A stretch of 64,000 bases of DNA, taken from assembly GCA_965220565.1 (NCBI GenBank), contig CBDCQG010000001.1:462030-526029 (forward strand), read 5' to 3'. Each line of letters starts with the position of its first letter. Position 1 is the first letter of the stretch. Under the pieces are notes generated by a model. The model was not told the origin of the DNA. It was given only the letters and a program-made list of their open reading frames with translations, and did not search any database. Shown here piece by piece: positions 7,195 through 38,957 of this stretch. The position numbers and the translations under genes are program-made. The DNA is from Dehalococcoidia bacterium. GTDB lineage: Bacteria; Chloroflexota; Dehalococcoidia; UBA6926.

Positions 7195-8208
7195 ATGAAG
7201 GCACTCGTCTTTGATGAGTACGGCGGCCCGGAAGTCCTCCAGTGGAAGGACATTGATGACCCCAAGCCCGGGCCGAATGACGTCGTGATTGAGGTTAAGG
7301 CTACGGCCATCAACTACAACGATGTCTGGGGACGCCGCGGAGCACCTATGGAGGTGGCTCTGCCCCACATATCCGGCAGTGACGCATCCGGCATCGTCGT
7401 TGACAAGGGCGCCGAGGTCACGTCGCATTCCATCGGTGACGAGGTTGTCGTCCACTGCGGCCGCCCGGCTTTCAACAATCGCACCGGGCAGGAGTGCAAC
7501 ATCTGGGGCTATGACTGGCCCGCGCTCGATGGCGCGCACGGCCAGTATGTGAGAGTTCCGGCGGAGAACGCCGTTCCCAAGCCCACCAATCTCACGCATG
7601 AAGAGGCCGCTTCATTCCCGCTTGTTCTCGTCACCACGTGGCGCAAGCTGGTTGAGAAGTCCAACATCAAGCCCGGCGACCACGTCCTCATCTGGGGCGC
7701 TGCGGGCGGTCTGGGCGTCATGGCCATCCAGATTGCGAGGCTGTTCCGGGCGCATCCGATCGCCGTTGCTTCCAGCGATGAGAAGCTGGAACTGTGCAAG
7801 GATCTCGGCGCGGAGTACCTGATCAACCGCAAGACGCAAGATGTCCGGCAAGAGATGCGCAACATTGTGGGGCGGCGCGGCGCAGAGATCGTTTTTGAAC
7901 ACCCCGGCCAGGCCACCATGGGCCTCAGCGTCCAGCTCGCCAGTTGGGGCGGCACCGTGGTCACCAGTGGCGCAACCAGCGGCTACGACTCCAACATCGA
8001 CCTGCGGCACATCTTCTTCCGACAGGTCAAGCTGGTTGGGTCCACCCTGGGTACGGTCCACCAGCTGCAGGACGCGCTGGACCAGGTGCAGGCAGGTCAC
8101 ATCAAGCCGGTTATCGACCGCGTCCTGCCCATGAAGGATGCAGGCGAAGGTCAGACCCTGCTTGAGACCGAGGCCGTGGCGGGCAAGGTTGTGCTTGTTC
8201 CCAACTAG
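7195..8208 (+). CDS. zinc-binding MDR-family alcohol dehydrogenase / quinone oxidoreductase-like
   Basis: 337 aa; GroES-like N-domain and Rossmann GAAGGLG; AGGGAGGG SD. Confidence 0.8.
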   Translation: MKALVFDEYGGPEVLQWKDIDDPKPGPNDVVIEVKATAINYNDVWGRRGAPMEVALPHISGSDASGIVVDKGAEVTSHSIGDEVVVHCGRPAFNNRTGQECNIWGYDWPALDGAHGQYVRVPAENAVPKPTNLTHEEAASFPLVLVTTWRKLVEKSNIKPGDHVLIWGAAGGLGVMAIQIARLFRAHPIAVASSDEKLELCKDLGAEYLINRKTQDVRQEMRNIVGRRGAEIVFEHPGQATMGLSVQLASWGGTVVTSGATSGYDSNIDLRHIFFRQVKLVGSTLGTVHQLQDALDQVQAGHIKPVIDRVLPMKDAGEGQTLLETEAVAGKVVLVPN

Positions 8209-14655: not shown

Positions 14656-15726
14656 CTAATCCCCGTTCACTTCGTCACAGATTTGCCTAAGCAGGTTGAT
14701 GACAGCGTCATCAAAAGGGCCTGTTTTATATGGCCGAGGATTAGATGACGGCCAACCCCAAGCGAACTTCTCAGATAACGCTTGCCAGGCTAGGGGCGCT
14801 CTTTCTTGCGCATTCGAAGAGGTCTCTAAAGCCACAGCACCGTTAAGGCAGTAAATGGTGTAGAGAAAATGATTGTCTTGTGACCGCACACTAAGGGTGG
14901 CGCCTCGCTCTATACGGTGGCTCCAGACCCTGATGGATTGCTTCTCTGACAGTTCCTTTACAAGACTGATCACGTTTCTAAAGTCGTCTTGTTGTGTGGA
15001 CGCAAGCTCATTGACGGTATCGACGAATTTGTCAATATTTTCCACCAACGGATCCGAGGATGTGTTCCGTTGCTGAGCCTGCGTCTCCTGCTCACGGTTA
15101 CGTGCCGTGACCAGATAGTCTTGAGCCTCCGGCAACGGAATGACTTGATCAATGTCTAGTAGAAGCTTGCCCTCATGCCGGTACGCTCGGACTCGGACGC
15201 ATCTGATATCCAACCCCATCTCGTTCAGCCAGAGGACTGATGTTGTGATTTCCTTGTTGAAATCCTCGGAGACGAGAATAATGCGCGGGCGCTCTGTGGC
15301 GATCGAGAAGTCGCCATCTTCTGCCGTCAGGTTAAGATGTTCACGGATTCGTTCTTCAGCCGACTCATTGATGTTCTTGTTTCTCAAGTAGCGAGCGTGA
15401 CCGTCAATGATGCTCTGTGTCTGGAAATTTGCCAGCATCGCCGCATAGCGAATTGCCTGCAACTCCATATGAACGCCGTCACCGCGTTTCAACTCGACAA
15501 CGACCAAATTCCCGGATGAGTCAATGCAAAGCAGGTCAATGTATCGCCAGGCGTCCTCCCAATCCGTGAATTCGTCGGCGATAACGAATAGACCTTCCTC
15601 AATGAATTCTGGGTGCTCGCGGAGAGCTTCTTGGAGGTCCGCCTCTGCGACACTTTCTTCGTGGAATGACGTCCGGTCAATCCCAGTCAAAGTCTTGTTA
15701 GTCATTTCATAGAGCATCCGCTTCAC
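14656..15726 (-). CDS. PD-(D/E)XK nuclease, DUF91/NucS-like N-domain plus about 190-aa C-terminal domain of unknown function
   Basis: 356 aa in a 42-52% GC patch; IDLLCIDSSGNLVVVELKRGDG...ELQAIRYAAM resembles RecB-like D..(D/E)xK nuclease core; no recognisable motifs in C-terminal half. Confidence 0.6.
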   Translation of the reverse strand: MKRMLYEMTNKTLTGIDRTSFHEESVAEADLQEALREHPEFIEEGLFVIADEFTDWEDAWRYIDLLCIDSSGNLVVVELKRGDGVHMELQAIRYAAMLANFQTQSIIDGHARYLRNKNINESAEERIREHLNLTAEDGDFSIATERPRIILVSEDFNKEITTSVLWLNEMGLDIRCVRVRAYRHEGKLLLDIDQVIPLPEAQDYLVTARNREQETQAQQRNTSSDPLVENIDKFVDTVNELASTQQDDFRNVISLVKELSEKQSIRVWSHRIERGATLSVRSQDNHFLYTIYCLNGAVALETSSNAQERAPLAWQALSEKFAWGWPSSNPRPYKTGPFDDAVINLLRQICDEVNGD

Positions 15727-15775
15727 TTCCTTGTTCGCAATTGCCGATCCCCAAACACTTTACTGCCCCCCCTAT

Positions 15776-16090
15776 TCATGAGACTCCCATCCCCTCCCGC
15801 GGCCGTATCTCCTGTAACTGATCCGCCTCAGCGTGTTCAGCATGATAAAGGTCCCAGCGTAGTTGCAGATTCATCCAGAAACCCGGGGAATTGCCGAAGA
15901 ACCGGGCAAGTCGCAGGGCAGTGCTTGGTGTCACACCTCGGCGGCCCCGCACAATCTCATTCACTCGTTGATACGGCACCCTAATCGCCTCGGCCAGGTC
16001 ATGCTGAGTCATCTCCATGGGGTCGAGGAACTCTTGCAACAACATCGCGCCGGGGTGCGTCGGCTCCCTATCTGTCGGAATGCGTACCAT
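15776..16090 (-). CDS. HigA-family HTH (XRE) antitoxin-like protein
   Basis: 104 aa; PTHPGAMLLQEFLDPMEMTQHDLAEAIRVPYQRVNEIVRGRRGVTPSTALRLARFFGNSPGFWMNLQ matches HigA/VapI antidote family. Confidence 0.75.
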   Translation of the reverse strand: MVRIPTDREPTHPGAMLLQEFLDPMEMTQHDLAEAIRVPYQRVNEIVRGRRGVTPSTALRLARFFGNSPGFWMNLQLRWDLYHAEHAEADQLQEIRPREGMGVS

Positions 16091-16112: not shown

Positions 16113-16191
16113 TGGCGTCCCCGGTGGGACTCGAACCCACAACCTGCGGATTAGAAGTCCGCTGCTCTGTCCGGTTGAGCTACAGGGACGC
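16113..16191 (-). tRNA. tRNA-Arg (anticodon TCT)
   Basis: reverse complement gives GCGTCCCTGTAGCTCAACCGGACAGAGCAGCGGACTTCTAATCCGCAGGTTGTGGGTTCGAGTCCCACCGGGGACGCCA; 7-nt anticodon loop CTTCTAA; CCA encoded. Confidence 0.85.
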
Positions 16192-16909: not shown

Positions 16910-17179
16910 CTAGAAGCGACGGATTACTCTGTCATATTCCGCGTGCGGGCCAATCCAGAACCAGACAACATCTCCATCCACCATAAGAGCCAGGGCACGA
17001 TAGTGCTCTCCGATCCGCACGGAATAGAGCGGCTCCCTCACTCCAACTCTCTTGAATGCGAGACTCCGGTGATATGGGTCTGTGCGAAAGAATTCGTATG
17101 CGCGCTTGGCTTGCTCTTGTACGGACTCAGGCAGTCGCCTGAACTCAATCCAGAAGTTGCGCTCAGTGAACGAGCGCAC
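16910..17179 (-). CDS. type II toxin, RelE/ParE superfamily
   Basis: 89 aa, GTG start; FWIEFRRLPESVQ...SVRIGEHYRALALMVDGDVVWFWIGPHAEYDR typical of RelE/ParE-fold toxins; start overlaps antitoxin stop by 1 nt. Confidence 0.7.
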   Translation of the reverse strand: MRSFTERNFWIEFRRLPESVQEQAKRAYEFFRTDPYHRSLAFKRVGVREPLYSVRIGEHYRALALMVDGDVVWFWIGPHAEYDRVIRRF

Positions 17180-17406
17180 TAGCCAAAATCTTCCTCACGA
17201 AGAGGCTTGGTGCGCCCGGCTTTATGCTCAGCGCGAACCTTTTCTGCCATCTTTTCGAGCCACTCTTGGGATTCCGGGGACGCAAGCAATTCGTCCCACT
17301 TCTTGTCTGCATCCATTTCTTCGAGGATTACCGCCGCGAGAGTTTCTTGCTTCTCTTCAGGCAGTTCCGCTGCCTTTTCAAACGCCTGTTGAAGTAGCTT
17401 ATTCAT
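17179..17406 (-). CDS. type II antitoxin (addiction-module antitoxin paired with RelE/ParE toxins)
   Basis: 75 aa from ATG 17404-17406 (MNKLLQQAFEKAAELPEEKQETLAAVILEEM...); track merges it into an over-long 244-aa ORF. Confidence 0.65.
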   Translation of the reverse strand: MNKLLQQAFEKAAELPEEKQETLAAVILEEMDADKKWDELLASPESQEWLEKMAEKVRAEHKAGRTKPLREEDFG

Positions 17407-17469
17407 CACAGTGCCCCTTAGCTCTGCATCAAGTATACGCCGCTTACTTGCGTCCGCTATGCTTTTACT

Positions 17470-36778: not shown

Positions 36779-37053
36779 CCAATCTCCTTACGCTGTAGCC
36801 ACATCCAAATGCCGCCCCACATGGCGGATGATTCATGCGCTCTCTTGTTCAGACCAAGCCAAATGAATCCTCATAATCTGTTTGCCGCTGCCGCCTAACT
36901 GCACATGCGGAGAGATGCTAGCGGATTGGTTGCAAGCGCCGTCTCTGACAGTGCGCCCGAATTTCTGACGAGCCTGCTGACCTTCATGTGGCTCGTAATC
37001 GACGTTGCGCATGGCCCGCCAATTCTTAGGAGATGTATCTAGAGTCCCCTTCA

Positions 37054-37267
37054 TTACTCCGTTGTCATATAGAGCGTCTCATCGTCAAGCTCACCACGCC
37101 GCTTCAAAGCATCGTACTCTTTCTGTGTTATAACCTTCATCGGCATGATTTCGAGATAACCTCTGACTGCAGACTTGATTCTCCTGAGTTTTAGAACACT
37201 CCAAACGACACCCACTAAAGCGGCAATCGTAGCAAAGAGATCTACTATGTCGATGAACTCAGCCACC
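37054..37267 (-). CDS. small membrane protein, hypothetical
   Basis: GTG 37265-37267 preceded by perfect GAGGAGG SD; single TM helix (FIDIVDLFATIAALVGVVWSVL) then charged tail; low-GC islet. Confidence 0.35.
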
Positions 37268-37420
37268 GTGCACCTCCTCACAGCCCCCTCTGAGGTGTCT
37301 TGACTCTCACGGGCAGGATGGCCAGTTACCACTTGGGGCCAGCACTTTTTGTGTCAGTTTACCATCGCCCTCTTTTCTTGCTTTTGTGACAAGCTCCCGT
37401 CATACACCCAGCCCTCATTC

Positions 37421-37452
37421 CGGCGAAAGCCGGAATCCATCATCCCCGTCTA
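37421..37452. repeat. dispersed hairpin repeat, family 1 variant (CATTCCGGCGAAAGCCGGAATC)
   Basis: same architecture with CCGGC/GCCGG stem. Confidence 0.55.
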
Positions 37453-37564
37453 ACGGATAGTCTTGGCCAAACTGCTTGCCGATCCTCGATCCGAAGACCA
37501 TATTCAATTGATGGCAAGCCCAATACCTAGGAACACGGCACAAAGGGACTATAGGAGAAAACAC

Positions 37565-38449
37565 ATGGTTGACGGCCTAAACATCTTCATCAATGAAGAC
37601 CTTAGCAAGCCAGAGAATCGCGTAAACCTCGCATTGTTCTCACTAATGCAACAAGACTGGTTCCGCGTATGGTTCTTGGAACAACTTGGCCTTGATGTGA
37701 ACGCTGTTGTTTATCCGCCAGTGAATGTACGGGGTCGGCGTCCAGACTTGAAAGTCGAGCGGGATGGGAAGCCCGTCGCATGGATCGAAATCGAGCTTGG
37801 CAAGAATGAGAAACAAGTTCGAGATTACCAAAGCATTTTCAGAGAGACGGTAAAGACGGTATGGGGCAAGAGAGAAGATAAGGGCGACCTCAGCTTAGAG
37901 GAGGTTAGGGAGTTTGTCATCGAGAAGCGCGACCAAGGGTCCCTGTCCTTGCAGGACAAACTTCATTGTGAGTATCTGGCGAAACTGATTGAGAAAGGAC
38001 TGAACGGACATACAGCGGCTCAACCCCGCGCAGGCGTGTCAGAGATAATGCGCAAGGAGCATCTAATCGTGGCGCTGGAGGGAGCCCTTGGAGACCGGCT
38101 CCACTACACCATTGGGCCTGTTGGCAGGGATTTCATCAGAGCTGATACCGTTGGGCAAAATGGAATCTCGCTCAAGGTGAATCGACGCGATAGGTCGGGT
38201 TACGTAGCGATATTCTCCATCTCGGCAGGCTCTCGGATTATCTTTCCAAGCAGGCAAAAGCTCGAGCGTTGTCTGCGAGGGAAAGATAATGCAATTGGCG
38301 ACTATTTGCGCTTTATTCAAGACGAAATGCGCTGTGACGTAGACGTTGATCGAAACAACGCTACTCCTCAGCCAAGCCTGGAAGAGCACAGGAGTCAGCT
38401 CGTGGATTCTGTTGGCGAACTCTCTAAGCTGATCTTGGCGCTGGCCTAG
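37565..38449 (+). CDS. hypothetical protein (possible PD-(D/E)XK-like motif)
   Basis: ATG 37565 with AGGAGA SD (track ORF from 37463 overlaps repeat); about 50% GC; RPDLKVERDGKPVAWIEIELGK segment loosely resembles nuclease core. Confidence 0.45.
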   Translation: MVDGLNIFINEDLSKPENRVNLALFSLMQQDWFRVWFLEQLGLDVNAVVYPPVNVRGRRPDLKVERDGKPVAWIEIELGKNEKQVRDYQSIFRETVKTVWGKREDKGDLSLEEVREFVIEKRDQGSLSLQDKLHCEYLAKLIEKGLNGHTAAQPRAGVSEIMRKEHLIVALEGALGDRLHYTIGPVGRDFIRADTVGQNGISLKVNRRDRSGYVAIFSISAGSRIIFPSRQKLERCLRGKDNAIGDYLRFIQDEMRCDVDVDRNNATPQPSLEEHRSQLVDSVGELSKLILALA

Positions 38450-38483
38450 CAAGAACCCTCCCGCTCTCTGCTATTCTGTCCAC

Positions 38484-38957
38484 ATGACGGCATCCAATCG
38501 GTCAAACGGCGCCAATCCGGACGCCCGCCAACAGGCGCGTGACATCATCACCGGCTACGTCGGCCACAAGGGCGCGCTCCTCATGGCCCTGCTGGACGTC
38601 CAGTACCAGCTCAACTACATCCCGGAAACGACCGTCGATGACGCCGCCGAGATCCTTGGCTACTCGAAGCCGGAGGTGTGGGGCGTTCTCTCCTTCTACT
38701 CCGATTTCTCCGTGGGGCAGGGCAGCGACCACTTCATCGACGTGTGTATCGATGCCCCGTGCCACGTCACCGGCGCGCGGTCCATCGAACGCGCCATTCG
38801 CGACGCCGTGGCTGATTCGGATGTGGAGGTGCGCCCTATCTCATGCCCACGCCTCTGCAACCAGGCCCCCGTCGTCGCCTACGACCAGCAATGGCGGGGC
38901 CAACTGACGCCTGATACCGCCGCCGAATTCGCCCGAAACATGGGAGTTGCTTCCTGA
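38484..38957 (+). CDS. nuoE: NADH-quinone oxidoreductase subunit E-like [2Fe-2S] thioredoxin-fold protein
   Basis: 157 aa; Cys ligands in CIDAPCHV and CPRLCNQAP. Confidence 0.8.
   Translation: MTASNRSNGANPDARQQARDIITGYVGHKGALLMALLDVQYQLNYIPETTVDDAAEILGYSKPEVWGVLSFYSDFSVGQGSDHFIDVCIDAPCHVTGARSIERAIRDAVADSDVEVRPISCPRLCNQAPVVAYDQQWRGQLTPDTAAEFARNMGVAS

Follow-up and report, generated by a model that had tools for sequence, protein, structure and literature searches.

A PDC-S11/MdgA-like nuclease from a Dehalococcoidia bacterium carries an undescribed C-terminal domain with cassette-like behaviour

Introduction

The genome of a Dehalococcoidia bacterium contains, in a stretch of 64,000 nucleotides that was analysed as a whole (the window), an open reading frame (ORF) of 356 residues at 14656-15726 on the minus strand, whose N-terminal part resembles the nuclease NucS. 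This locus raises the question of what the rest of the protein is and what it does for the nuclease. An earlier note, made from the sequence alone, had described the remainder as an unexplained extension of about 190 residues. Here, we found that the protein belongs to the candidate defence family PDC-S11, that its C-terminus is predicted to form a compact domain of about 130 residues, which we call type-A, and that this domain is exchanged between alleles and is shared with other immune effectors. The protein would probably be a defence nuclease in which type-A supplies the recognition.

Results and discussion

Gene and overall architecture

Both the ORF, which is present in the ORF list, and the peptides quoted in the earlier note were recovered in the window. 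The 356 residues are obtained if the frame is begun at GTG 15726, and the stop codon occupies 14656-14658. The likely start is ATG 15717, which yields a protein of 353 residues; this codon was preferred because it has an upstream AGGAAG sequence at ribosome-binding-site distance, because every homologue starts with MLYEM, and because an identical 353-residue protein (P0001) is found in public databases. P0001 numbering equals ORF numbering minus 3, and ORF numbering is used below unless stated otherwise. The sole Pfam assignment on the 356-residue ORF was NucS_C at residues 28-126 (E-value 8e-9), in line with the earlier remark that the larger part of the protein lacks an assignable standard domain.

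The full-length protein was modelled by AlphaFold2 on an alignment of 110 full-length homologues (alignment A1), with a mean predicted local distance difference test (pLDDT) score of 88. In P0001 numbering, the model revealed an N-terminal module at residues 1-195, a long helix at 196-218 and a compact C-terminal domain at 229-350. On the minus strand of the window, these parts were delimited as follows: a NucS-like PD-(D/E)XK nuclease module (residues 4-198, 15133-15717), supported by NucS_C, Foldseek and AlphaFold; a linker helix (residues 199-228, 15043-15132), which also holds the recombination breakpoint between alleles; and the type-A domain (residues 229-356, 14659-15042), a compact alpha/beta sandwich that we propose as a recognition or sensor cassette. 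The pLDDT was mostly above 85 in the nuclease module and 52-58 in the linker helix.

Structure and conservation of the nuclease module

A Foldseek search with the full model revealed NucS/EndoMS (2vld and 5gke, E-value 1e-4) as the top matches, followed by SduA (8ps4, E-value 0.03). In the model, the N-terminal module runs from a PD-(D/E)XK core through three helices and a fourth strand to a conserved beta-hairpin. The catalytic motif, composed of D64, E78-x-K80, Q90 and Y94 (15445-15537, minus strand), was invariant across the 110 homologues, and its residues align with D160, E174, K176, Q187 and Y191 of Pyrococcus abyssi NucS (2vld). On these alignments, the N-terminal region of about 200 residues appears to be a NucS-like nuclease with a complete catalytic set, and it would be expected to cut DNA.

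Strong conservation in alignment A1 continued until about residue 206 (P0001 numbering), and part of what had been listed as unexplained falls inside this stretch. In particular, the peptide '..RCVRVRAYRHEGKLLLDIDQVIPLPEAQDYL..' belongs to the best-conserved segments of the family (with an invariant C and P and the string 'QVIPLPE') and corresponds to the beta-hairpin of the nuclease module in the AlphaFold model. The peptide 'RCVRVRAY...QVIPLPEAQDYL' likewise lies within the region conserved across the 110 homologues. An unassigned and apparently folded domain does follow the nuclease, but it comprises about 130 residues (229-356) instead of about 190, as the boundary had been placed too early.

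Family placement

Five PDC-S11 hidden Markov models (HMMs) of PADLOC matched the nuclease. The best was PDLC04909 (E-value 1.3e-86, residues 5-242), and the other four gave E-values of 1.7e-69 to 1e-29. The alignments stopped before the bulk of the C-terminal domain, with the longest reaching residue 286, and the PDC-S11 models themselves differ in their C-termini, which are of the DUF4268 type in PDLC04913 and of other types in PDLC04915 and PDLC04916. The nuclease is a member of PDC-S11. The PDC families are 'guilt-by-embedding' defence candidates collected from BREX, DISARM and type I restriction-modification loci, among which PDC-S11 is an untested candidate according to its authors (Payne et al. 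2024, bioRxiv 10.1101/2024.01.29.577857). Our homologue search returned 4982 proteins, most of 350-375 residues, and a scan of one genome per species revealed 448 loci. The majority of these loci were in metagenome-assembled genomes of Dehalococcoidia/Chloroflexota, and the hosts of the remainder included Latescibacterota, Paraburkholderia, Armatimonadota, Hydrogenedentota and Bryobacterales.

Shedu, Card1/Can2 and NucS, which had been named as comparators, proved to be the wrong families for a PDC-S11/MdgA-like protein. NucS/EndoMS (2vld and 5gke) shares the catalytic PD-(D/E)XK core, with the D, ExK, Q and Y residues aligned; however, the N-terminal half of NucS/EndoMS has no match in the window protein in NCBIfam or PDB searches, and the nuclease lies at the N-terminus in the window protein and at the C-terminus in NucS/EndoMS. 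The NCBIfam NucS equivalogs reached 37.4 and 31.7 bits, far short of their respective cut-offs of 216 and 252, and the match was confined to model positions 126-202, which form the catalytic half. Two homologues, P0027 and P0089, carry the NCBI name 'endonuclease NucS'. Since such family members remain far under the NucS equivalog cut-offs, the label is probably a propagated misannotation.

Shedu SduA (DUF4263, 8ps4) has in common with the nuclease the PD-(D/E)XK/NucS-like superfamily and a variable appended domain. The order is opposite, as the Shedu nuclease follows a variable N-terminus, and the match is limited to a core motif of 35 residues, so the window protein is not a Shedu member. 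The SduA HMMs of PADLOC matched only residues 49-86 (E-values 5e-4 and 5e-3), and SduA_C was found at E <= 0.1 in 10 of the 110 homologues, with a best E-value of 3e-4. A parallel in logic is offered by the GmrSD type IV enzymes (Machnicka et al. 2015, PMC4619093), which also combine a nuclease without a methyltransferase with an interchangeable accessory domain. The GmrSD accessory domains DUF4268 and DNA_binding_1 recur in the nuclease family or fused to its C-terminal domain, whereas the nuclease folds differ, being PD-(D/E)XK in the window protein and DUF262/HNH in GmrSD.

Relationship to MdgA

Rodriguez-Rodriguez et al. (2025, Cell Host Microbe, PMC12366544) reported that MdgA (modification defence gene A) is both required and sufficient to protect against T4, though not against T4-GT7, that the purified protein degrades T4 DNA far better than T4-GT7 DNA in vitro, and that the E77A substitution abolishes both nuclease activity and defence. 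In their supplementary tables, mdgA is defined on insert T4-29, which is contig F01A_T4_pc4_2 and has a PADLOC PDC-S11 match; all seven inserts with PDC-S11 matches came from T4 or T2 selections. Four of our homologues (P0064, P0065, P0069 and P0078) combine NucS_C with DUF4268 at residues 229-367, and their nuclease modules are 51-52% identical to that of the query. P0064 matched the PDC-S11 HMM PDLC04913 from end to end, and the catalytic glutamate lies at exactly position 77 in P0069 and P0078, equivalent to E78 of the query and E77 of MdgA. MdgA thus very probably belongs to the same family, with a different C-terminal domain. The pattern of an MdgA mutagenesis primer, GTTATTGTTGARAACAAGCTAGATGAT, was unmatched in the genome contigs and metagenome contigs.

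The two proteins share their general plan: each is encoded by a single gene without a methyltransferase partner, and each has an N-terminal NucS-like PD-(D/E)XK nuclease and an appended C-terminal domain, with MdgA comprising about 370 residues. The C-terminal domain of MdgA is DUF4268, whereas the window protein has at that place type-A, which is unrelated to it by sequence. Additionally, MdgA is the one of the two that has been tested with phages (T4 versus T4-GT7).

Structure of the type-A domain

The C-terminal domain was also modelled alone, on a separate alignment (A2), with a pLDDT of 93.9 and a predicted template modelling (pTM) score of 0.87. In this model, three helices are followed by four strands, two helices, a strand and a final helix. 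The type-A domain is therefore predicted to be a compact, folded unit of about 130 residues and not a disordered or low-complexity region. The earlier note had considered that the region might be disordered, of low complexity or a trivial domain; the model scores and the lack of a match in Pfam and PDB sequence searches indicate otherwise. Pfam searches of 36 diverse members were negative throughout, the type-A domain matched no sequence in the PDB, and the C-terminal part of the window protein had no match in NCBIfam.

Type-A was carried by 106 of 110 close homologues, while DUF4268 occupied the same position in the other 4. DUF4268 was considered as the identity of type-A itself and rejected: type-A had no PF14088 match, and hhalign gave a probability of 0.1 against the DUF4268 C-termini of the four homologues. 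A PDB sequence search with a DUF4268 segment returned no match.

Structure comparison revealed that the type-A domain resembles an alpha/beta sandwich of the frataxin/YjbR/'double-wing' kind. The neighbours, with the figure obtained for each, were a YdhG-like protein (9t2w, 7.6), E. coli YjbR (2fki, 7.4), Nqo15 (2fug_7, 6.9), CyaY/frataxin (4hs5 and 4jpd, 6.6-6.3), the C-terminal domain of T4 MotA (5jlt, 5.9) and DR2400 (2a1v, 5.4). Two of these neighbours, YjbR and the C-terminal domain of MotA, serve as prototypes of the 'double-wing' DNA-binding motif. Several proteins with a double-wing/frataxin-like fold do not bind DNA. Because YjbR, the YdhG-like protein, CyaY and the MotA C-terminal domain are only 4-13% identical to type-A and gave no profile match, the likeness is taken from the model as a resemblance of fold and not as demonstrated homology. 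A search of a viral structure library gave no significant match (best E-value 0.05).

Exchange of the C-terminal domain between alleles

We compared the two parts of the protein across 105 homologues and found that mean identity to the query dropped from 57% over the nuclease module to 18% over the C-terminal domain. For P0002 the two values were 78% and 62%, whereas they were 85% and 21% for P0004, and 83% and 21% for P0005. The nuclease module and the C-terminal domain have discordant histories. P0005 is encoded at locus L002 (the same as L008), in a genome whose six flanking proteins are 91-99% identical to those of the window. At the DNA level, the L002 allele was 74-84% identical to the window allele up to gene position of about 600 and 35-46% identical beyond about 660, which places the break in the linker. 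A cassette that is replaced between alleles at one fixed locus would leave just this pattern.

Type-A domains on other effectors

A type-A profile was searched against 1.84 billion cluster representatives and matched 667 proteins at E <= 1e-3, of which 460 matched at E <= 1e-10; the 667 are themselves cluster representatives at 50% identity. Most matches had the same nuclease architecture or were fragments of the nuclease, and short 'stand-alone' matches were indistinguishable from gene fragments. Other architectures were also found. TIR_2 preceded type-A in P0245 (Cryptosporangium japonicum WP_344650114.1), P0199, P0132 and P0202; the type-A domain of P0245 was recognised by hhalign with a probability of 99.5 and an E-value of 5e-23 at residues 325-454, and the TIR half of P0199 matched PADLOC ThsB1 with an E-value of 6e-50. 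P0161 combines type-A with a weak TIR match (TIR_2, E-value 3e-4, under the Pfam cut-off), and P0216 combines caspase, HEAT and type-A, with the type-A profile matched in two stretches. Furthermore, type-A was joined to an MGMT-like DNA_binding_1 domain in P0154, occurred in tandem in P0121, P0122 and P0143, and was followed by the C-terminus of another PDC-S11 subtype in P0249. Two of the partners found at or beside the type-A position, DUF4268 and DNA_binding_1, are accessory domains of GmrSD type IV enzymes.

Since type-A is common to different immune effectors and interchangeable with DUF4268, it is most simply explained as a recognition or sensor module. The proposal that the appended domain serves in sensing or target recognition is thus indirectly supported by its fast evolution, its exchange as a cassette, its replacement by DUF4268 and its fusions to TIR and caspase; what it would recognise is a matter of argument, taken up below.

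At the locus of P0245 (L086, 5001-8026; Cryptosporangium japonicum, BAAAGX010000014.1), the gene is followed on the same strand by a gene for a protein of 529 residues with faint TIR and TPR matches, and together they may make up a TIR system of two genes. Near P0245 at L086, no ThsA-like gene was seen.

Genomic setting

On the minus strand, the order is tRNA-Arg(TCT) (16113-16189, identified by ARAGORN), a gap of 22 nucleotides, an orphan higA antitoxin gene (15776-16090; TIGR02607 HigA, E-value 3e-31, 107 bits), a gap of 58 nucleotides to ATG 15717, and the nuclease gene. A convergent CoA-transferase gene ends 13 nucleotides from the nuclease stop codon. The 3' flank of the tRNA is a variable spot that holds higA and the nuclease, and the nuclease locus is bordered by the same tRNA in the syntenic loci L001 and L002. 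An integrative islet flanking the tRNA was considered, and no att-like direct repeat could be convincingly matched to the 3' end of the tRNA. The GC content of the nuclease gene was 0.51 compared with 0.62 for the locus, and it was 0.51-0.54 in three genomes with a local GC content of 0.60-0.62 (window 14656-15800; L001 8001-9080; L002 6001-7068), which is consistent with a horizontal origin or with turnover of the locus. A promoter and terminator scan of the locus found none on the coding strand.

No higB was found in the window by tblastn, whereas an intact higB lies upstream of the orthologous higA in L001, L005 and L012 (the L001 pair at 7324-7617 and 7633-7983). L002, from the closest genome, has the tRNA, 22 nucleotides and then the nuclease, with neither higA nor higB, and the nuclease gene also stands alone in L003 and L004. 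Because higA has its own higB in orthologous loci and L002 is without it, higA is probably a neighbouring toxin-antitoxin remnant and no functional partner of the nuclease.

Two further features of the window were noted. A ParE-like toxin gene (16910-17179, minus strand; PF24732, E-value 5e-9) with a small upstream ORF (about 17179-17430, minus strand) lies between the DUF6391 and HPRT genes, where the local GC content is about 0.52. The pair is absent from L001 and L002 and therefore counts as another small insertion near the nuclease that is specific to the strain. Farther away, the lowest-GC patch of the window (37001-38500, GC content 0.497) holds an ORF of 328 residues (37463-38449, plus strand) with no Pfam or PADLOC match and no HMM similarity to the PDC-S11-family nuclease. 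A PD-(D/E)XK-like string, 'RRPDLKVERDGKPVAWIEIELGK', was spotted in it by eye, and the ORF may be another acquired nuclease-like gene.

Proposed function and alternative explanations

The computations show that the protein belongs to the family, that its catalytic motif is intact, that it has two domains, to which fold class the C-terminal one belongs, and that this domain is exchanged as a cassette and shared with other effectors; anti-phage function, DNA cleavage and the ligand of the C-terminal domain are what we infer. Our preferred reading, to which we assign a probability of roughly 0.55, is that of a single-polypeptide, restriction-like defence nuclease without a methyltransferase, in which the nuclease is licensed once the C-terminal cassette has recognised a feature specific to the invader. 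The N-terminal NucS-like PD-(D/E)XK module would cut DNA, and a flexible helix would connect it to the alpha/beta-sandwich domain of 130 residues, which would act as the specificity module, so that cleavage is licensed by the invader-specific feature and host DNA is spared. The cue would most likely be carried by the DNA of the invader, for instance a modified base as with MdgA, and less likely be a phage protein or some other sign of infection. We favour a DNA feature in view of the MdgA precedent, the fusion to an MGMT-like domain, the fold, which is double-wing-like, and the fact that DUF4268 can take the place of type-A. The recognition cassette would diverge quickly, recombine in the linker between alleles at the fixed tRNA-Arg site, and be re-used on TIR and caspase effectors. 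Type IV restriction is characterised by a nuclease without a cognate methyltransferase; no methyltransferase gene was noticed in the ORFs flanking the nuclease gene in the window or in the called genes of the syntenic L001 and L002. The other mark of this class, a need for modified DNA, is known from the relative MdgA (T4 versus T4-GT7 DNA).

A wider reading is offered tentatively, with the balance somewhat against it: type-A may be an unnamed invader-sensing module on at least three immune effectors (NucS-like nuclease, TIR and caspase), which in one Dehalococcoidia lineage is exchanged as an allelic cassette beside tRNA-Arg and gives strains with flanking proteins 91-99% identical different specificities. 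The shuffling of specificity subunits in type I restriction systems would resemble such an exchange.

Several observations weigh against a DNA-reading defence nuclease. The neighbours in the window, L001 and L002 are tRNA-Arg, higA or higBA, CoA-transferase and housekeeping genes and do not constitute a defence island. The assignment of MdgA to PDC-S11 follows a chain of supplementary-table entries, and this tested relative bears DUF4268, which has no detectable sequence relation to type-A. The full-length model had a pTM of 0.57, so that the placement of the two domains relative to each other is uncertain. Type-A is acidic (isoelectric point 5.0, family median 5.2), which is atypical for DNA binders, although this is weak evidence because the nuclease module is acidic as well (isoelectric point 4.6). 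Finally, the TIR and caspase fusions suit the sensing of a protein or small molecule at least as well as the reading of DNA.

The last two points lead to a different mechanism, which we consider rather unlikely, in which binding of a phage protein or some other cue by the C-terminal domain would switch on an otherwise silent, non-specific nuclease in an abortive-infection type of defence. This would explain why type-A is fused to non-DNA effectors that need a trigger (TIR in at least five cluster representatives and caspase-HEAT in one), and it would agree with the acidity of the domain, with a fast diversification that is typical of protein-sensing modules, and with a fold that also serves protein binding in frataxin and secretion chaperones. 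However, type-A takes the position of DUF4268, and purified DUF4268-bearing MdgA tells modified from unmodified DNA; the fusion of type-A to an MGMT-like DNA-binding domain points in the same direction. Far less probable is a pairing of the nuclease with the HigA-like helix-turn-helix (HTH) protein encoded upstream, in which the nuclease would act as the toxin of a toxin-antitoxin system or of a controller-regulated pair. The HigA-family gene lies on the same strand, 49 nucleotides upstream of the GTG start (58 from the ATG), and the pairing recurs in L001, L005, L011 and L012. Nevertheless, an HTH gene is near the nuclease in just 4-6 of 84 loci, it belongs to a separate higBA module in L001, L005 and L012, of which the window has lost higB, and the nuclease occurs without it in the closest genome and alone in L003 and L004. 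HigA was therefore rejected as a controller or antitoxin of the nuclease, on the intact higB of the orthologous loci and the relative without higA. We give least credence of all to a housekeeping mismatch-repair endonuclease of the NucS/EndoMS type. The Pfam NucS_C match, the NCBI name of P0027 and P0089 and the best PDB matches, which are NucS and EndoMS, would favour it; in contrast, the equivalog scores (37 and 32 bits) are far below the cut-offs (216 and 252), the similarity is confined to the catalytic core with the NucS N-terminal half unmatched, and the low GC content, the replacement between near-identical genomes and the hypervariable C-terminus are unlike a conserved repair gene.

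Significance

In public records, the protein is unnamed or its relatives are called 'endonuclease NucS', and the PDC-S11/MdgA placement gives it a testable function. It is a member of a known candidate family with one validated relative and carries an undescribed, putative recognition domain. What is new is a domain family, well folded in the model and absent from Pfam, with the hallmarks of immune recognition, namely fast evolution, cassette exchange and re-use on different effectors. These findings extend a known pattern and do not overturn current ideas, and their main value lies in the definition of the type-A domain family and its cassette-like behaviour. The natural allele pairs, which have the same nuclease and different C-termini, are ready-made domain swaps for the mapping of specificity. 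Should type-A read modifications on DNA, this family would offer new modification-dependent nucleases out of a phylum without cultured members (Dehalococcoidia).

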